Assembly (NCBI RefSeq): GCF_036507355.1
Contig: NZ_AP027877.1
Reading direction: 5' to 3' (one strand)
Source: Escherichia coli
GTDB lineage: Bacteria; Pseudomonadota; Gammaproteobacteria; Enterobacterales; Enterobacteriaceae
Length of the DNA stretch: 64,000 nucleotides
Positions 36,551 through 43,998 of this stretch are shown here, piece by piece (position 1 is the first letter of the stretch; each line of letters begins with the position of its first letter). The notes below the pieces were generated by a model. That model had not been told where the DNA came from. It saw only the letters and a program-made list of their open reading frames with translations, and did not search any database. A program made the translations under genes and the position numbers.

Positions 36551-37054
36551 TTATTGATAGTGTTTTATGTTCAGATAATGCCCGATGACTTTGTCATGCA
36601 GCTCCACCGATTTTGAGAACGACAGCGACTTCCGTCCCAGCCGTGCCAGGTGCTGCCTCAGATTCAGGTTATGCCGCTCAATTCGCTGCGTATATCGCTT
36701 GCTGATTACGTGCAGCTTTCCCTTCAGGCGGGATTCATACAGCGGCCAGCCATCCGTCATCCATATCACCACGTCAAAGGGTGACAGCAGGCTCATAAGA
36801 CGCCCCAGCGTCGCCATCGTGCGTTCACCGAATACGTGCGCAACAACCGTCTTCCGGAGCCTGTCATACGCGTAAAACAGCCAGCGCTGGCGCGATTTAG
36901 CCCCGACATAGCCCCACTGTTCGTCCATTTCCGCGCAGACGATGACGTCACTGCCCGGCTGTATGCGCGAGGTTACCGACTGCGGCCTGAGTTTTTTAAG
37001 TGACGTAAAATCGTGTTGAGGCCAACGCCCATAATGCGGGCTGTTGCCCGGCAT
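36551..37054 (-). CDS. insB: IS1 InsB transposase segment
   Basis: 167-aa [40 protein letters not shown]. Confidence 0.9.
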
Positions 37055-37248
37055 CCAACGCCATTCATGGCCATATCAATGATTTTCTGGTGCGTACCGG
37101 GTTGAGAAGCGGTGTAAGTGAACTGCAGTTGCCATGTTTTACGGCAGTGAGAGCAGAGATAGCGCTGATGTCCGGCGGTGCTTTTGCCGTTACGCACCAC
37201 CCCGTCAGTAGCTGAACAGGAGGGACAGCTGATAGAAACAGAAGCCAC
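36973..37248 (-). CDS. insA: IS1 InsA
   Basis: 91-aa [43 protein letters not shown]. Confidence 0.9.
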
Positions 37249-38338: not shown

Positions 38339-38412
38339 GCGGGCGTAGTTCAATGGTAGAACGAGAGCTTCCCAAGCTCTATACGAGGGTTCGATTCCCT
38401 TCGCCCGCTCCA
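38339..38412 (+). tRNA. glyU: tRNA-Gly (anticodon CCC)
   Basis: GCGGGCGTAGTTCAATGGTAGAACGAGAGCTTCCCAAGCTCTATACGAGGGTTCGATTCCCTTCGCCCGCTCCA, 74 nt with encoded CCA. Confidence 0.95.
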
Positions 38413-38546
38413 TGACCTTTCTTAAAGTACTCCAACCTACTGAATCCTAAGGGATACGGCTTTAAGCCTTCCGCTAGTTTTACTCACTGTAACCAACACT
38501 GTAACTAAATTTGTTGAAATAGTGAGCAGACTTAAGATCTCAGTAC

Positions 38547-40178
38547 ATGCTCAACTCAAAAACCTATCTTTATCAGCGCAATGGCGTCTTTTATATCCGC
38601 CTCAGGATGAAGTCCACAGATCGCCTGACCGTTTCACATCCTTCCCATAGCCGTTATAAAATAGCGTCAGTATCACTACGGACTAAGGATAGACGTACAG
38701 CTATGGCTTACTCACGGCAAATCAAGGCAGCACTTAGGGCAATCCATGCAGACAGACCCAACGCCTCCTATGAGGAAATGAGGGAACACCTGAGGGACAT
38801 CGCAGAGTGGGAGTTGTCTACAGGTCGTTCAGACCTCTTCGAGCCAGATATGAGAGATCTATACCGTGACCAGTATGGGGAAGTGGGAGAGAATCTTGTC
38901 CATGCTCTGGCAAGCGAGCCACTGACTATTGACCAGCATCGCTATATTAATGAGGCTCTTAATGTACTCAAGGCCTGCATGAAGCGCATTGAAGCGGGAG
39001 ATAGCCAGCCACTTATAGATTATATAGATGGATTTGATGCTGCTGCTGGGGCTAATGGCCAAGCCTCTGCAACTCTATCTGTTAGTGCTCCCCAAAAAAC
39101 AAGCATTACTGAAGGCAAACACTGCGTAACCGTTGCTTCTCTCTTTGAGCAGTACGAGCAGGAAAACGCCCAGAACTGGAAGCCAGCAACATTACGAGAA
39201 AACAAAGCTTCTCATGCTGCGTTAATCGAAGTTTTTGATTATCTGGGCCTCAATGCTGACGCCAATGTGTTAGCTCGTGCGGATATGCTTAGGGTTCGGG
39301 ATATCCTCCAGCAATTGCCGAAGAATCGTAAGCAGCGTTTCAAAGATGTTCCGTTGGTTGACCTGCTAGGTCGTGAGGATAAAACCGATTGTCTGGATAT
39401 TGTTACCATCAATAATAAATATCTCATTAAGATGGCGGCTGTTTTCAAGTGGGCCGTGCGTAATGACCTGATTAAAAAGAATATGACAGAAGGGCTAGAG
39501 CTTAAGGTTCCCCAGCGTAAAGCCTCTGAGGCGCGTAATGCTTTCTCTACGGAGCAGGTAGGACAACTACTGGCTGCCGCCCAAGTTTACTCACAGAGAC
39601 CTTCTGGTAAGCCGTATCATTATTATGTTACCGCCTTGGCTGCTATCACTGGGGCGAGACTCAATGAAATAGCCCAACTACAGGTCAAAGACGTCAGGAC
39701 CACTGAGGCGGGAACCGTTTATATTCATATCAATGAAGACGATAGTAGTCTACCCGGTAAGAGCATCAAGAACGCTCATAGTGACCGCTGTGTGCCTCTG
39801 GTCGATGGGGCCTATGGTTTTATATTGGCTGACTTTATGAGGTTGGTTGAGACCCGTAGAGGCGCTGATGGTGATGACGCTATGGTGTTCGATGGTCTTC
39901 GCCTCATGAAGAACGGTTACGGTGAGCAGGTGAGTAAATGGTTTAATCGGACGTTGTTGCCTAAAGTCCTCGCAGACCGTAGCGGCTTAGCGTTTCACTC
40001 GTTTAGACATACAGTTGCGACCCAGTTAAAACAACATGGGGTCGAGTTGGCGTATGCACAGGCGATCATGGGGCATAGTTCAGGGTCTATTACTTACGAC
40101 CGTTATGCTAAAGAGGTTGAGGTTGATAGACTGGTCAATGTGATGGCTGATGTTTATAAGGAGGTTGTGGCCCCTTAA
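38547..40178 (+). CDS. Tyrosine recombinase/integrase, unusually large (island 1)
   Basis: 543-aa ORF starting 135 bp after glyU; C-terminal HSFRHTVATQLKQ...AQAIMGHSSGSITYDRYAKE resembles catalytic R..H-x-x-R/Y box. Confidence 0.75.
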   Translation: MLNSKTYLYQRNGVFYIRLRMKSTDRLTVSHPSHSRYKIASVSLRTKDRRTAMAYSRQIKAALRAIHADRPNASYEEMREHLRDIAEWELSTGRSDLFEPDMRDLYRDQYGEVGENLVHALASEPLTIDQHRYINEALNVLKACMKRIEAGDSQPLIDYIDGFDAAAGANGQASATLSVSAPQKTSITEGKHCVTVASLFEQYEQENAQNWKPATLRENKASHAALIEVFDYLGLNADANVLARADMLRVRDILQQLPKNRKQRFKDVPLVDLLGREDKTDCLDIVTINNKYLIKMAAVFKWAVRNDLIKKNMTEGLELKVPQRKASEARNAFSTEQVGQLLAAAQVYSQRPSGKPYHYYVTALAAITGARLNEIAQLQVKDVRTTEAGTVYIHINEDDSSLPGKSIKNAHSDRCVPLVDGAYGFILADFMRLVETRRGADGDDAMVFDGLRLMKNGYGEQVSKWFNRTLLPKVLADRSGLAFHSFRHTVATQLKQHGVELAYAQAIMGHSSGSITYDRYAKEVEVDRLVNVMADVYKEVVAP

Positions 40179-40179
40179 G

Positions 40180-40225
40180 GATGACCATAGGCGATGACCA
40201 TAGGCGATGACCATAGGCGATGACA
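40180..40225 (+). repeat. 3.5 tandem copies of 13-bp unit GATGACCATAGGC
   Basis: Exact tandem copies at 40180, 40193, 40206 plus partial; start 1 bp after integrase stop. Confidence 0.9.
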
Positions 40226-40330
40226 CTTGCTACTATTCCTATGGTCCCCTTTGTGGTCCTATGTGGTCCTGTGTGACCCTTTGTGTGGTCATGTTTTGAC
40301 TCATAGTTTTCACTACTTGTCAAGCATATT

Positions 40331-40353
40331 TAATACGACTCACTATAGGGAGA
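40331..40353 (+). promoter_or_regulatory. Phage T7 RNA polymerase promoter, exact consensus
   Basis: TAATACGACTCACTATAGGGAGA = 23/23 match to T7 -17..+6 consensus; predicted +1 G at 40348; faces the KilA-N gene. Confidence 0.8.
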
Positions 40354-40585
40354 AGGGACACAAAAAGTTTTCTCTCTCTGTCTCTCTCTATGATGACACT
40401 TGCTACTACTTCAGGTAGCTTTAACTCTAACCGTAACTTATCGCATCCTTTCAGGGGCGGGATGACCAATTACAGACACCAAGCGTTCTACTTAAAATGA
40501 ATGCTTCCTGTGTGCTCTGGGTCAGTCGATAAGTGAATAGCCTTAGACATCATATTAATTATGGTCTCTAACCCCTACAGGGGCT

Positions 40586-40729
40586 TAACTTTAAGTATTA
40601 ACTTATAGTCTACTTAAAGACACAATTAAAGATTAACTTAAAGTATTAAATTATAGATTAATTAAAGACCAATTAAAGAGTAACTTTAAGTATTAACTTA
40701 TAGTCTACTTAAAGACACAATTAAAGATT
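40586..40729 (+). repeat. AT-rich iteron-like array: two identical 49-bp direct repeats with a degenerate copy between
   Basis: TAACTTTAAGTATTAACTTATAGTCTACTTAAAGACACAATTAAAGATT at 40586-40634 and 40681-40729. Confidence 0.9.
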
Positions 40730-40922
40730 GACTCTAAGGGAATACCTTAAGAGGTGATGATATTCATAATAATCAATCACCAAACCTATAGGTCTCCTCA
40801 AGGCATTACCCAGAAGCTAACTGTATGGCCCTGTATGGTCCTGTACGCCATTCTTTAGGATGCCATGTAGTTTCGTATGGCCTGATGCCTAGCGTGGCTC
40901 AGAGACCCTCCCAGTAGTAAAT

Positions 40923-40945
40923 CAATACGACTTACTAATAGGAGA
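40923..40945 (+). promoter_or_regulatory. Degenerate T7-like promoter (5 mismatches)
   Basis: CAATACGACTTACTAATAGGAGA retains the AATACGACT core; function uncertain. Confidence 0.3.
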
Positions 40946-41157
40946 CACACTCCGAACCACTCACCACGTGTCTCTCAAAGTTCCACCTCTCGCGCTTCAC
41001 CATACAGTAGCTCCGCACAGCTACGACACAATCATTCATTCAATCTCAAAGTCATTCTGTTTGCATCCTGTTGTCCTGCTGGTCTCCCTTCGCTTGGGGA
41101 CTTTGAGTGGGCCAGTAGGGGGCGGTTTAGTGTGCATATTTAAAAGGTAACCAAGCA

Positions 41158-41721
41158 ATGAACAATAAACATAAACATGCAGGTCATATTATCACTATTG
41201 AAGGCCACAGCTTTAAGTCTAATGAGTCTGGCATGTGGAATCTTACAGAAATATGGAAAATCCTCGGATTACCTAACAATAAGCTACCCTCTCAGTGGCG
41301 CGGCAAGGTAACAAAGAGGCTCACCGACATGCAAAAAATGCACGTCGAGAAGATTGGTATTGAAAGCATAACCTACGCAGACAAACAGGCTACCCTCAAG
41401 TATGCAGGATGGGTCTCTGAAGATTTCGAGGACATGGTCTATGCAGCCTTTGAGGCTATCCTTGAGATGCCTGAAGTTGCCACGGTCGTTGCTAATAAGA
41501 TGGTCGAACTTGGCTATCACGCTGAAGCTGAGCTATTGGAACGTCATAAGGACGACTATAGAGAAGCTATGCAGACCCTTAAAAAGATTGGTAAACGTGT
41601 TGACGGCAGGAAGCCTGAGCGCATCTACAAGGCCGTACTTAACGGTAATCTGACGAAATTTCAAGGGTTATCCATGATTTCTCGCAGCAGTGTCTGGTAC
41701 GCCCGAACAGTGAATCTATGA
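41158..41721 (+). CDS. KilA-N-like DNA-binding domain protein (island 1)
   Basis: 187-aa ORF; N-terminal IITIEGHSFKSNESGMWNLTEIWKILG ... ATLKYAGWVSEDFEDMV resembles KilA-N/anti-repressor N-domain by eye. Confidence 0.5.
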   Translation: MNNKHKHAGHIITIEGHSFKSNESGMWNLTEIWKILGLPNNKLPSQWRGKVTKRLTDMQKMHVEKIGIESITYADKQATLKYAGWVSEDFEDMVYAAFEAILEMPEVATVVANKMVELGYHAEAELLERHKDDYREAMQTLKKIGKRVDGRKPERIYKAVLNGNLTKFQGLSMISRSSVWYARTVNL

Positions 41722-41844
41722 TGGCTATCGATCACGATAGATGCCAGCGATCAATTTCAGGTTACCGATCGAAACAAACGATCAGCACGATGGTTGCAAT
41801 CGGATATCATATTGACACTTGTCTGACATCCTGAAGGTATCAAT

Positions 41845-42318
41845 ATGTTTGGGCTTTTTAAGAAAAAGGCAAAAGCGGAAAGGTGTTATGATGTAACACG
41901 CATTCAATACGAGCTGGTTGTAATGTCATCTAAGCTGATAAAAAAACAGACCGATATGTTCAAAGTAATAAAAGGGGAGCGAGAGGAGGCTTTAGGAGAC
42001 CCTTTATTATCAGCAGGGTATATAACGCCATGGGTCATTGGATATTGCACTGGTCTCCTGGATGCAGTGACTCAGACGGAGGCTAACAGGATGGCATTTA
42101 CATCAGAAATGCTTGGGCTTCTTTTTGCTGCAGTTTTCGGTGATGATAAGTCTCTTGAGGCCATGGGAACTTATATAGCCTGTAACGAAGCCTCCTCACC
42201 AGACCATGGATTTCATGTTACGTATGAGCTTTATATGTCTGGTCTAGCGAAAGCGTTTAATGAGGTATGTGAGGATAAACCTGCGATAGGACTTCTGAAC
42301 TATTTAATGCAGGATTGA
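41845..42318 (+). CDS. Hypothetical protein (island 1)
   Basis: 157-aa ORF downstream of KilA-N gene; no family recognised. Confidence 0.45.
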   Translation: MFGLFKKKAKAERCYDVTRIQYELVVMSSKLIKKQTDMFKVIKGEREEALGDPLLSAGYITPWVIGYCTGLLDAVTQTEANRMAFTSEMLGLLFAAVFGDDKSLEAMGTYIACNEASSPDHGFHVTYELYMSGLAKAFNEVCEDKPAIGLLNYLMQD

Positions 42319-42584
42319 AAATTTCCCACAAAAATCTCAGTGCCTATCTAACAGTAATAACCCTGCAACATTCCCCCGTATACCTCCAGAAGTTATCCAG
42401 AAGCCGAAGTAGGTATCCTGTCATGTATTTGAATCATCAAAGTTGTTCGTTCTATTCCTCTTTAGGGAATATTACAGCCCTACAGCCTTGACCAGAGATC
42501 ACTTGATGTGTAACCATAACTGTAACCAAAAGGATTCATCATCCTTTAAGAAACAATTGGTTAGTGAGTGATTGTCTTCGATAC

Positions 42585-42607
42585 TTCGATTCCCTTCGCC
42601 CGCTCCA
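42585..42607 (+). repeat. Direct repeat of glyU 3' end (att site duplication between island 1 and island 2)
   Basis: TTCGATTCCCTTCGCCCGCTCCA identical to 38390-38412. Confidence 0.9.
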
Positions 42608-42771: not shown

Positions 42772-43998
42772 ATGAAGCTGACTGCTCGTCAGGTTGAAAC
42801 TGCGAAACCCAAAGAGAAGCCCTACAAACTGGCCGATGGTGGTGGGCTTTACCTGCTGGTTAATCCCAACGGTAAAAGATACTGGCGTCTCAAATACCGT
42901 TCGTTAGGTAAAGAGAAGCTGCTCGCTATTGGCGTTTATCCCGATGTTTCTTTAGCTGAGGCCCGAAGTAAGCGTGAGGATGCTAAAAGAACATTAGCGG
43001 CTGGCAACGATCCCTCTCTTGAACGAAAAATTGAGAAACTTAGTCGTCAACAAGACGCTGAAAACTCGTTTGAGGCTATCACACGGGAGTGGTATCAGCG
43101 TCGCTATGACCGCTGGTCTGTCTCCTACCGCGAAGAAATGCTGAGAACCTTTGAGAAAGATGTATTTCCTTATATCGGTCACAGGCCAATCAAAGATATC
43201 AAGCCGATGGAGTTGCTTGCAGTTCTTTCAAAGATAGAAGCACGAGGGGCAACAGAGAAAGTCCGCAAGGTTCGTCAGCGTTGTGGAGAGGTCTGGAAGT
43301 ATGCCGTTGTGACTGGGAGGGCCGAGTACAATCCAGCACCTGATCTAGCCAGCGCCGTGAGTCCTCATGAGAAAGAGCACTATGCTTTTTTAACCCAGGA
43401 TGAATTGCCTGAGTTTCTTCGGACTCTGAACGCCTATGCCGGTAGTGTGCTTGTTAAGATTGCGATGCAATTGCTCATTTTAACAGGAGTAAGGCCAGGG
43501 GAGTTGAGGCAAGCGGAGTGGCAGGAGTTTGATTTTGAGAAAAAGGTTTGGAATGTACCAGCGGAACGTATGAAAATGCGCCGCCCTCATCTTGTTCCAT
43601 TATCAAGCCAGGCAATTGACCTGCTTAATCAACTTAAACCCATAACGGGAGCAGGAGCGTTATTATTCCCAGGACGTAATAATCCTAAGAAACCGATGAG
43701 CGATATGGCATTGACTGTGTTGGTCAGGCGTATCGGCTATGCCGGGCGCGTTACAGGGCATGGATTCCGCCACACGATGAGTACCATTTTGCATGAGCAG
43801 GGATTCAACTCGGCCTGGATTGAGTTACAGCTGGCTCACGTCGATAAGAACTCAATTCGTGGGACGTATAACCATGCTCAATATTTGGAAGGTCGGCGGG
43901 AGATGATGCAGTGGTATGGAGATTTCATCGGTCAAGCAGGCAAATCCGGATCATCGCTAGCTTATGCAGCTATTAGCTTGACTGCTGAATTAGAGTGA
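42772..43998 (+). CDS. P4-type tyrosine integrase (island 2)
   Basis: 408 aa; N-terminal arm-binding MKLTARQVETAKPKEKPYKLADGGGLYLLVNPNGKRYWRLKYR; C-terminal GHGFRHTMSTIL...LAHVD...YNHAQY. Confidence 0.9.
   Translation: MKLTARQVETAKPKEKPYKLADGGGLYLLVNPNGKRYWRLKYRSLGKEKLLAIGVYPDVSLAEARSKREDAKRTLAAGNDPSLERKIEKLSRQQDAENSFEAITREWYQRRYDRWSVSYREEMLRTFEKDVFPYIGHRPIKDIKPMELLAVLSKIEARGATEKVRKVRQRCGEVWKYAVVTGRAEYNPAPDLASAVSPHEKEHYAFLTQDELPEFLRTLNAYAGSVLVKIAMQLLILTGVRPGELRQAEWQEFDFEKKVWNVPAERMKMRRPHLVPLSSQAIDLLNQLKPITGAGALLFPGRNNPKKPMSDMALTVLVRRIGYAGRVTGHGFRHTMSTILHEQGFNSAWIELQLAHVDKNSIRGTYNHAQYLEGRREMMQWYGDFIGQAGKSGSSLAYAAISLTAELE

Follow-up and report, generated by a model that had tools for sequence, protein, structure and literature searches.

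Enterobacterial genetic islands with T7-like promoters have been described before (Chen & Schneider, NAR 2006, 34:1133, doi 10.1093/nar/gkj511). The island analyzed here is of that already known kind: it shares with the published ones T7-like promoters in a non-coding stretch, the lack of a cognate RNA polymerase gene, an upstream tyrosine integrase, short terminal direct repeats and a few small downstream genes on the same strand, and differs from them in carrying one exact and one degenerate promoter. The original set reportedly comprised 12 islands and is said to span 4–13 kb, with 2–3 promoters within 150–620 bp and repeats of 17–24 bp. A first-pass annotation of the same DNA had implied that the element was novel, which the 2006 publication shows to be overstated. 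That report is sequence-based, and our literature searches found no functional study of T7-like-promoter islands.

Phage satellites are the second point of comparison. P4, PICI and PLE carry an integrase, sit at conserved positions and answer to one particular infecting phage, often with defense genes among their cargo; their regulators, replication proteins and functions for packaging or redirecting capsids are self-encoded, and what they detect is helper proteins. For T7, the most thoroughly studied of the virulent phages, no satellite is known to us; literature searches recovered neither an experimentally described T7 satellite nor a T7-promoter-driven defense. PICMI (phage-inducible chromosomal minimalist islands) are very small integrative elements that need a virulent phage; they have no genes for capsid remodelling, and their packaged form is a concatemer as long as the helper genome (PMC10803314). 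Their three core proteins serve excision and replication, AlpA mediates their activation, and they integrate next to fis (PMC10803314; Nat Commun 2024). Among defense systems, RAZR (PD-T7-4; Vassallo 2022; Nature 2026, PMC13017515) is an abortive-infection RNase with proven activity against T7 and is activated by the T7/T3 portal (PMC13017515).

Here, we analyze a window of 64 kb, the whole stretch of Escherichia coli DNA under study, and compare its island with related loci (numbered with the prefix L). The explanation that we favor, with somewhat better than even confidence in it as a whole, is that 38390–42607 is a member of the T7-like-promoter island family, placed in tRNA-Gly(CCC) by its own tyrosine integrase, that would be switched on by a phage RNA polymerase, perhaps amplified by the phage, and parasitic on it.

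Results

A Small Integrative Island in a tRNA Gene

The island is an integrative element of 4.2 kb (38390–42607) whose ends are 23-bp direct repeats and whose site is tRNA-Gly(CCC). Its content is a tyrosine integrase gene, a structured non-coding stretch of about 1 kb and two further genes, one KilA-N-like and one an orphan.

38339–38412, plus strand: tRNA-Gly(CCC) (ARAGORN; Rfam tRNA, 71.6 bits)
38390–38412: left att repeat (attL core), TTCGATTCCCTTCGCCCGCTCCA, the last 23 nt of tRNA-Gly(CCC) (direct-repeat search)
38547–40178, plus strand: tyrosine integrase, 543 aa (PHROG 1 integrase, E 2.6e-42; NCBIfam Xer-like matches)
41158–41721, plus strand: ORF187, KilA-N-like DNA-binding protein, first gene behind the promoters
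41845–42318, plus strand: ORF157, all-helical orphan protein (AF2 pLDDT 69.7)
42585–42607, plus strand: right att repeat (attR core), same as 38390–38412 (att flanks compared across loci)

The integrase and the att repeats at 38390 and 42585 bear out the earlier description of the locus as a mini-island. The integrase gene shares its strand with the phage promoter and lies 5′ of it; the protein had no match in PADLOC, and its counterpart in relatives is annotated as "site-specific integrase." The insertion studied here is also called the glyU island.

Homologues of ORF187 form 94 clusters across Enterobacterales and Pseudomonas, with the same island layout wherever checked. ORF157 had no match in Pfam, PHROG, NCBIfam, PADLOC or PDB, fold searches with it were uninformative, and its homologues occur in Yersinia, Pectobacterium and Morganella. 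Against the PADLOC defense families, the cargo gave no convincing match, only a weak one of ORF187 to PD-T4-2_B (E 1.3e-4). The coding genes are 41–91% identical across genera, with invariant residues, and what follows the KilA-N-like or Rha-like first gene varies: it is either ORF157 or DUF6971 together with a protein of ~370 aa.

Profile searches and tblastn found no terminase, capsid, primase or Rep genes in the island. With 20 T7 proteins (including gp1) as tblastn queries, no T7 homologue, RNA polymerase included, was found in the 64-kb window or in seven related loci, and a T7-like prophage remnant is thereby ruled out. The full-length non-coding region gave no blastn match at E ≤ 1e-5 in the phage database.

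An Exact T7 Promoter and a Degenerate Second One

40331–40353, plus strand: T7 class III promoter TAATACGACTCACTATAGGGAGA, 0 mismatches (23/23), predicted +1 at G40348
40923–40945, plus strand: degenerate T7-like promoter CAATACGACTTACTAATAGGAGA, 18/23

Both promoters had been noticed in the first-pass annotation and both are present, the first as the claimed 23/23 match. It is the same as T7 phi6.5, phi9, phi10, phi13, phi17 and phiOR (26/26 with phi9) and is the only site in the window within three mismatches of the T7 promoter; 100 shuffles produced none. As proposed, it faces the KilA-N-like gene, ORF187 and ORF157 both lying downstream on the plus strand. The degenerate promoter, 592 bp from the first, has AAATCAATACGACT in common with T7 phi1.1A and is identical in L002–L004, and a search for an exact phage counterpart found none. 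A second promoter is kept at the equivalent position across the family; it is exact in Proteus, Pectobacterium and Pseudomonas, and K11-type versions are also found. No sigma-70-like site was detected ahead of the cargo genes, leader and cargo contained no terminator, and the T7-family promoter is plausibly the only signal from which the island could be expressed.

Of 5,426 complete E. coli genomes, 201 have the promoter, which occupies 223 positions in chromosomes and 1 in a plasmid and is exact in most of the ~200 carriers; ~4–6% of complete E. coli genomes carry an island of this kind, and some copies are interrupted by IS elements. NCTC10973, SBF22 and D72 are among the island-positive isolates. 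The exact sequence recurs in L003–L009, in L013 and in many metagenome contigs, the copy in L002 having one mismatch. Relatives contain two to three tandem exact copies, and some E. coli and Klebsiella islands have arrays of T7 plus K11 promoters.

The same layout is kept in related islands of Klebsiella, Yersinia, Proteus, Pectobacterium and Pseudomonas. The Pectobacterium promoter equals the phiOR-equivalent promoter of phage Q19 (23/23), the Pseudomonas promoter agrees with promoters annotated in Phi-S1 and Pf-10, and the EHEC promoter matches T7-like coliphages and Salmonella phages (some named Kayfunavirus) at ~7 sites per genome; in all three, the promoter is that of T7-like phages recorded on the island's own hosts. 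When the E. coli island is compared with that of Yersinia, the promoter segments cannot be aligned, although the leader on either side is 89% identical. As judged by these comparisons, promoter specificity tracks the local phage and the rest of the layout is kept. Because the promoter is exact in ~200 E. coli genomes and multiplied and swapped in relatives, the core idea of the first-pass annotation, that the element would listen for a T7-family RNA polymerase, is strongly supported by exact retention, tandem copies and cognate swaps, and activation by the phage polymerase is likewise a strongly supported prediction.

Exact T7 promoters in bacterial assemblies often stem from vector contamination. 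Among 100,044 species genomes, four promoter matches were found, of which two lay in identical CMV-T7 vector-like sequence, as contamination would produce; the third was a 548-bp contig and the fourth a Klebsiella copy of the island. A match to a cloning vector, which the earlier annotation had named as fatal to its hypothesis, was looked for in plasmid and vector sequences, and none was found.

Repeats and RNA Structures of the Leader

40180–40224, plus strand: three 13-bp tandem repeats GATGACCATAGGC (repeat search)
40219–40408, plus strand: promoter-bearing unit between 17-bp direct repeats GATGACACTTGCTACTA (40219–40235 and 40392–40408)
40239–40290, plus strand: 10-bp-period repeats …TGTGGTCC… (repeat family D2)
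40348–40378, plus strand: predicted 5′-terminal transcript stem-loop GGGAGAAGGGA… / …UCUCUCUC (MFE fold)
40436–40534, plus strand: structured leader domain of ~100 nt, conserved, closing stem ACUUAUCG/CGAUAAGU (fold)
40572–40583, plus strand: short GC hairpin CCCCTACAGGGG, directly before the AT-rich array (sequence and predicted fold)
40586–40738, plus strand: AT-rich array, three units of ~48 bp, GC ~0.26, rich in CTTAAAG and TAAAGAC[A/C][A/C]
40753–40781, no strand: palindrome GGTGAT-N17-ATCACC with AT-rich center (pattern search)
40821–40844, plus strand: second short array, GGTCC/GGCCC-type repeats (repeat family D2)
41052–41146, plus strand: long hairpin in the 5′ UTR, just ahead of the ribosome-binding site of the first gene (RNAalifold)

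The 13-bp repeats, the 17-bp repeats and the AT-rich array were all found where they had been placed before. Each 13-bp repeat carries GACCA, which is the primase pentamer TGGTC on the minus strand; the copy number differs between relatives, and L003 has eight GACCA sites here. The 10-bp-period repeats hold four plus-strand TGGTC pentamers, at 40242, 40254, 40264 and 40286. A similar promoter unit occurs in two to three tandem copies with a period of ~118–121 bp in relatives (spacings from L004, L005, L007 and L009).

A transcript started at the predicted +1 would begin with a stem-loop resembling the 5′ hairpins of T7 late mRNAs, and the Yersinia copy has a complementary variant of the stem (GGGGAGAGGGG/CCCCUCU). 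The CT-rich run after the promoter resembles the T7 right end at first sight, but the 3′ arm of this predicted hairpin accounts for it better. In the leader domain, the closing stem is present in 11 of 11 sequences, with compensatory changes at 5 of its 8 pairs; the leader fold has a z-score of −2.8. The core 23-mer of the domain was found in 22 metagenome contigs, and the leader matched no family in Rfam. The long hairpin ahead of the first gene comprises 31 pairs, and compensatory changes are seen at 14 of these (RNAalifold, seven loci, five genera).

The short GC hairpin is conserved in L005, L006 and L020 and the palindrome in L005 and L006. GGTGAT-N10-24-ATCACC has a single match in the window and likewise a single match in T7, at 39329, ~100 bp downstream of phiOR.

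Likeness to a T7 Replication Origin

The leader has some likeness to the T7 primary origin and phiOL/phiOR in its promoter that reads into an AT-rich stretch, its TTAAAG/TAAAGAC motifs and its primase pentamers, and the tandem promoters of relatives are comparable to phi1.1A/phi1.1B. Units 1 and 3 of the array are the same over their first 49 nt. The k-mers that the array shares with T7 peak, on the same strand, at 201–500 (the phiOL region) and 5801–6100 (the primary origin), with z ~3.5 against dinucleotide shuffles; the shuffled controls already share 15 of 37 k-mers, so the similarity is partly compositional. The k-mer result was reproduced for the Pectobacterium island against phage Q19. 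TAAAGAC[A/C][A/C] is common to the array and to the T7 left-end repeats and origin, and a motif census found TAAAGAC absent from the islands of other genera.

The primase recognition pentamers, which we take from the established T7 literature to be T7 gene 4 sites, number 9 on the plus and 15 on the minus strand around the promoter against 1.9 ± 1.3 expected, an enrichment that comes from tandem repeats and in which the sites are non-independent. It is found in five of six E. coli loci, the exception being L006.

The island departs from the T7 origin in the distance from +1 to its AT-rich array, which is 233 bp and takes in a structured domain of ~100 nt; the AT-rich stretch of T7 directly adjoins phi1.1B. 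The origin-like architecture proposed in the first-pass annotation is supported in some measure by shared k-mers, the TAAAGAC motif and pentamer enrichment, and the spacing speaks against it. We regard an origin function of the leader DNA as plausible. For T7 itself, plasmids bearing both the origin and the concatemer junction are, by its title, the subject of Chung & Hinkle (1990).

Excision, Packaging and Defense Genes

A blastn-short search for mimics of the T7 ends, terminal repeat, concatemer junction or pac site returned only promoter matches, and the class II pause signal ATCTGTT is absent from the leader, occurring only inside the integrase gene. The predicted attP junction (…TTCGATAC-TTCGATTCCCTTCGCCCGCTCCA-TGACC…) had no match in JGI metagenome contigs and IMG/VR, both consisting of contigs and not of lysate data. 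In the 22 leader-bearing metagenome contigs, every att junction seen was attL or attR and none had a terminal overlap; the public contigs contained no excised, circular or concatemeric form of the island. As long as the island is integrated, a phage RNA polymerase would leave the integrase unexpressed, the gene lying upstream of the promoter.

Sister islands L006, L013, L020, L022 and L046 carry RAZR directly after the same type of integrase (E 8e-99 against PADLOC PD-T7-4). RAZR and mixed T7 and K11 promoters occur together in some E. coli and Klebsiella copies. The island in the window has no RAZR, and elsewhere RAZR is located upstream of the phage promoters. In some copies, further defense genes are close by: L014 has Kiwa and L020 has MqsRA.

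Discussion

With no recognizable host promoter and a leader of ~800 nt running from the exact T7 promoter, the cargo is most likely silent in an uninfected cell. Upon infection, a phage of the T7 promoter-specificity group would shut off host transcription, and its single-subunit RNA polymerase would, very probably, start at G40348 and transcribe the structured leader and the cargo. As the leader DNA has the arrangement of a T7 origin, the phage replisome could then amplify the island from it, a step to which we give nearly an even chance. The outcome would be parasitism of the phage in one or both of two forms that are not mutually exclusive: interference with the phage as an infection-triggered defense, which we consider an even prospect, and transfer of the island as a minimal satellite, with concatemers filling the T7 head as one example, which is possible but doubtful.

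The island has the integrase, att sites and chromosomal integration of satellites such as PICI, PICMI, P4 and PLE, and differs from P4, PICI and PLE in that no regulator, replication protein or packaging or capsid-redirecting function was detected in it. In place of a replication module, it has only the origin-like non-coding region and would rely wholly on phage enzymes. No packaging determinant (pac or cos mimic, terS, capsid redirection) was found, and packaging of a signal-free, headful type is a possibility; at 4.2 kb, about 9–10 copies would be needed to fill a T7 head. Unlike PICMI, it lacks a replication gene, occupies tRNA-Gly and would be triggered when the phage RNA polymerase itself recognizes the promoter. 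We tentatively raise the possibility that these islands are true satellites of virulent T7-family phages, without regulator, replication or packaging genes of their own and transferred as ~10-mer concatemers in T7 heads. Such a satellite would sense its helper by promoter recognition and have a borrowed origin run by the phage RNA polymerase, primase-helicase and DNA polymerase, and its promoter modules would be swapped or stacked (T7 plus K11), following the T7-like phages in circulation.

The alternative that survives best, although we think it unlikely, is a pure infection-triggered defense cassette, in which the promoter only expresses toxic or interfering cargo once host transcription has been shut off and the phage neither copies nor packages the island, which would spread by some other route. 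The variable cargo behind the first gene is in keeping with this, as are RAZR in sister islands, Kiwa and MqsRA beside some copies, and the fruitless searches for a packaging signal and an excised form. Expression alone, however, leaves the ~800 nt of conserved leader, the origin-like array, the palindrome and the primase-site repeats unexplained; the cargo lacks a convincing match to known defense; and RAZR, being upstream of the promoters, is not driven by them.

A further alternative is that promoters and origin-like DNA act as a decoy or sponge, titrating the phage RNA polymerase, primase-helicase and DNA polymerase, with the proteins secondary. Relatives with two to four promoters, some of mixed specificity, and the arrays of L005 with up to 15–16 GGGTC primase sites would suit such a role. 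One to three chromosomal promoter copies would nevertheless be outmatched by the 17 promoters of each of many replicating T7 genomes unless the island were amplified first, and against a secondary role of the proteins stands the conservation of the coding genes across genera; we judge a decoy improbable.

Less probable still, and in our estimate very much so, is an inert relic, in which an integrative element would have picked up a piece of a T7-like phage genome whose promoter has lost its function. The degeneracy of the second promoter, which has no phage counterpart, and the copies disrupted by IS elements are features that a relic could have, but the first promoter has stayed exact in most carriers and is tandem in relatives, the islands of Pectobacterium, Pseudomonas and EHEC have the locally appropriate promoter in its stead, compensatory changes are seen in RNA stems, and remnants of T7 protein-coding genes are absent. 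Contamination of the assembly by a cloning vector or synthetic construct is refuted, with next to no probability left to it, by hundreds of independently obtained natural isolates that have the island in the same tRNA gene of the chromosome, by island-specific flanks that are not vector sequence and by the lack of any plasmid or vector match.

If T7-like phages do switch on, replicate or move the islands, this would reveal a sensing principle, promoter recognition by the invader's own polymerase, that no satellite or defense system is known to use. Should the islands be satellites, they would be the first known for their phage family (classed as Autographiviridae in the records consulted) and of the most minimal design known. 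The same behavior could explain how small islands survive and spread through infections that destroy the host chromosome, and it would matter for phage therapy and wherever T7-based expression is used in natural isolates.

A phage promoter within an integrated island

The chromosomal region carries lysS, IS1, actS/ygeR and tRNA-Gly(CCC), and a 23-bp repeat with a copy spacing of 4,195 bp bounds an island of ~4.2 kb at the tRNA. The island contains a 543-amino acid tyrosine integrase, a 979-bp noncoding region and the genes ORF187 and ORF157, all on the plus strand, and is followed in tandem by a second island with a P4-type integrase. The sequence TAATACGACTCACTATAGGGAGA occurs once in the window and is identical to T7 class III promoters, matching phi9 at 26/26 positions; no further site within three mismatches was found in the window or across 100 shuffles. 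The first-pass annotation had reported this exact promoter, a set of repeats and a degenerate second promoter, and all of them were recovered from the sequence.

Features of the island and its tandem neighbor
38390-38412 and 42585-42607: 23-bp repeat, first copy at the tRNA 3' end
40180-40224: three 13-bp tandem units
40219 and 40392: 17-bp direct repeat
40331-40353, plus strand: exact T7 promoter
40586-40738: three AT-rich units, each ~48 bp, GC down to 0.26
40923-40945: second promoter, 18/23
41158-41721, plus strand: ORF187
41845-42318, plus strand: ORF157
42772-43998: P4-type integrase of the second island
45207-46910, minus strand: 567-amino acid protein matching the candidate defence family PDC-M68B, second island
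49087-52199: arsA/arsB, second island

The IS1 copy (insA and insB reading frames; 36551-37248) is inserted in the lysS-actS interval, a short distance upstream of the tRNA-Gly hotspot. The second island (42608-~53900) uses the same tRNA-Gly site and also carries an ArsN1-like acetyltransferase and an arsA fragment; beyond it lie ygeH and then the ETT2 region.

Distribution of the island

The first-pass annotation had named a vector match as fatal to its reading; we looked for one and found none among plasmids and vectors. Among 5,426 complete E. coli genomes, the island matched chromosomes only, at the same tRNA site, and this recurrence in many genomes, together with the lack of any plasmid or vector match, rules out a vector or construct artifact. 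Some part of the island was matched in 400 of these genomes and near-full length in 35, while the promoter, exact or nearly so, was found in 201 E. coli genomes at 223 chromosomal places and one plasmid place. The whole noncoding region had no match in the phage database.

A set of 100,044 species, represented by one genome apiece, yielded four exact copies of the promoter: one in an island of this kind at tRNA-Gly(CCC) of Klebsiella pneumoniae ATCC 13883, one on a 548-bp contig of Pseudomonas schmalbachii (L011), and two within identical CMV-T7 vector-like sequence, in Pseudoalteromonas caenipelagi (L010) and Proteiniclasticum aestuarii (L012). The latter two are contigs of ~5.3 kb, identical around an exact T7 promoter beside an apparent CMV promoter and similar to mammalian expression vectors, which suggests contamination of these two GTDB representative assemblies.

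Promoters follow the local phages

Related islands in other genera and in EHEC carry promoters of different sequence.

Promoters of related islands and their phage matches
Pectobacterium: TATTAACGACTCACTATAAGAAGA; 23/23 with the phiOR-equivalent promoter of Pectobacterium phage Q19, fitting its 13 annotated promoters
Pseudomonas: TTAAAAACCCTCACATATAGGGAGA; best matches are annotated promoters of Pseudomonas T7-like phages
Proteus, two copies: AATTAACCCACACTATAGGGAGA; no assignment to Proteus phages, the matches listed being to T7-like phages of other enterobacteria
Yersinia: AAGTTACGACTCACTAAGGGGAGA
EHEC, two copies: GACTAAACTATCACTATAGGGGAG; T7-like phages of ~38-40 kb, mainly of Escherichia/Salmonella and including Kayfunavirus-named records, with ~7 sites per genome

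When the E. coli island is compared with that of Yersinia, the promoter segment cannot be aligned, while the adjoining leader is 89% identical, as expected if selection acts on recognition by the polymerase of the infecting phage. This pattern is the strongest evidence for a functional promoter. No T7 protein, including the RNA polymerase (RNAP), was encoded in the window or in seven related loci tested, and no sigma-70-like site was found ahead of the cargo genes.

A family with a constant layout

ORF187 encodes a KilA-N-like DNA-binding protein with homologs across Enterobacterales and Pseudomonas; ORF157 is a conserved all-helical orphan. At every ORF187-homolog context fetched, the layout was constant: an integrase of ~500-540 amino acids comes first, and in all copies where a tRNA or att repeat could be recognized, it adjoins tRNA-Gly. 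A DUF4145 gene follows in some copies. Noncoding DNA of 0.6-1.5 kb then leads to the KilA-N-like gene, behind which lies ORF157 or, alternatively, a small ORF with DUF6971 and a ~370-amino acid protein. Island copies of other E. coli strains contain one, two or three exact T7 promoters ~118-121 bp apart, and the 17-bp direct repeat of the window marks the edges of this repeatable promoter unit. E. coli ESY002 and K. pneumoniae share a second island type (92% identity), in which exact or one-mismatch K11 promoters flank an exact T7 promoter (L006 3296-3873; L013 7038-7614, strain ATCC 13883). Metagenome copies have T7-only, K11-only and mixed promoter sets, with stacked two-specificity arrays at L024, L027-L029, L032, L036 and L043.

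The IMG/VR proviral contigs L008/L009 carry three exact T7 promoters in tandem in a copy integrated behind a different tRNA cluster, Met-Arg-Thr-Gly(TCC), which shows that the family is not confined to a single tRNA-Gly target. A variant in EHEC strain E2865 (L046 2196-3115), seen also in many O157/O111/O103-type genomes, consists of integrase, DUF4145, noncoding region and a Rha-family regulator. Its promoters have a third specificity, ACTAAACTATCACTATAGGGG, matching T7-like phages of Escherichia/Salmonella, Kayfunavirus-named records included; the 5'-UTR hairpin is the sole part alignable with the island of the window.

Leader structures and origin-like features

The predicted transcript from +1 (40348) has three structured parts: a predicted 5'-terminal hairpin; a ~100-nt domain (40436-40534) whose closing stem is present in 11/11 sequences, with compensatory changes at five of eight pairs; and a long hairpin directly before the first gene, with compensatory change in 14 of 31 pairs across five genera. 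Neither the domain nor this hairpin (41052-41146) matched an Rfam family; candidate roles for the two are primer, processing site, and regulatory or packaging element.

Origin-like features are placed among these structures. The 7- and 8-mers of the AT-rich array are shared most with T7 201-500 (left-end repeats and phiOL), with a second peak at 5801-6100 (primary origin), both on the same strand; the z score of ~3.5 is against dinucleotide-shuffled queries, and the signal is therefore in part compositional. For the AT region of the Pectobacterium island, too, the sharing is highest at the left end of phage Q19. The array has three copies of the motif T[AT]AAGAC[AC][AC]; the T7 copies cluster at 241-321, and the origin has one at 5944. 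The window and T7 each have a single GGTGAT-N-ATCACC palindrome, at 40753 and 39329 respectively, the T7 one lying downstream of phiOR.

The pentamers GGGTC, TGGTC and GTGTC, recognition sites of the T7 gene 4 primase, are over-represented on each strand at five of the six E. coli loci; the window has 9 and 15 on its two strands against 1.9 +/- 1.3 expected, counts that are nonindependent because the sites come from tandem repeats. The T7+K11 island type showed no enrichment. In an E. coli variant (L005), ~15 GGGTC sites are arrayed directly behind the AT region. Several long tandem arrays follow the AT-rich region of this variant (4200-4600) and comprise ~15 copies of TAGGGTCTCTCTC, repeats of CTCAGTTTTGAGCA and CACTAGCACCA-type repeats, the first array multiplying the GGGTC pentamer.

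Satellite transfer and interference

The best supported of the mechanistic claims is that the island would stay silent in the uninfected cell until a T7-group RNAP arrives and then very probably be transcribed from 40348. From its sequence features, the leader DNA could plausibly, if more tentatively, act as a T7-type origin through which the phage replisome would amplify the island. Satellite transfer may be the outcome, at less than an even chance. Against it, the island contains no pac or terminal-repeat mimic, replication gene or packaging gene that we could find, and the promoter does not lie ahead of the integrase. In public metagenome and IMG/VR contigs no attP junction was found, and on 22 metagenome contigs with the leader every att junction seen was attL or attR; none of these are phage-lysate data. 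Packaging as helper-sized concatemers is known from PICMI satellites of virulent phages, which have no capsid genes (PMC10803314), and this speaks for the feasibility of mobilization.

The first-pass interpretation of a satellite or infection-triggered defence module is reasonable and partly supported, best for a promoter that would respond to phage RNAP and tracks local phages. Islands described by Chen and Schneider in 2006 reportedly span 4-13 kb with two to three promoters, an integrase, direct repeats and no RNAP gene, and the island of the window fits this feature for feature; we found no experimental follow-up of T7-like-promoter islands in the searchable literature, and the kind is therefore already known and functionally unexplored.

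Interference with the phage, possibly alongside satellite transfer, stands at an even chance. ORF187 and ORF157 had no convincing match to known defence families. Known defence or toxin-antitoxin genes lie just past the island right end in other genera, KwaA/KwaB (Kiwa) in Pectobacterium (L014 9436-10558) and MqsR/MqsA in Yersinia (L020 6357-7051), which may make the tRNA-Gly site a general hotspot for defence. The DUF4145 gene beside the integrase in sister islands is PD-T7-4 (E 8e-99), directly behind the integrase at L006 2655-3287 and also in L013, L020, L022 and L046; its gene was earlier reported to "often overlap an integrase gene". PD-T7-4, since renamed RAZR, acts in abortive infection as an RNase that the T7/T3 portal activates (PMC13017515). 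The RAZR literature examined makes no mention of phage promoters beside it. The window has no RAZR, and in islands that carry it the gene precedes the phage promoters; its presence in sister islands indicates that the island family is engaged in conflict with T7-like phages.
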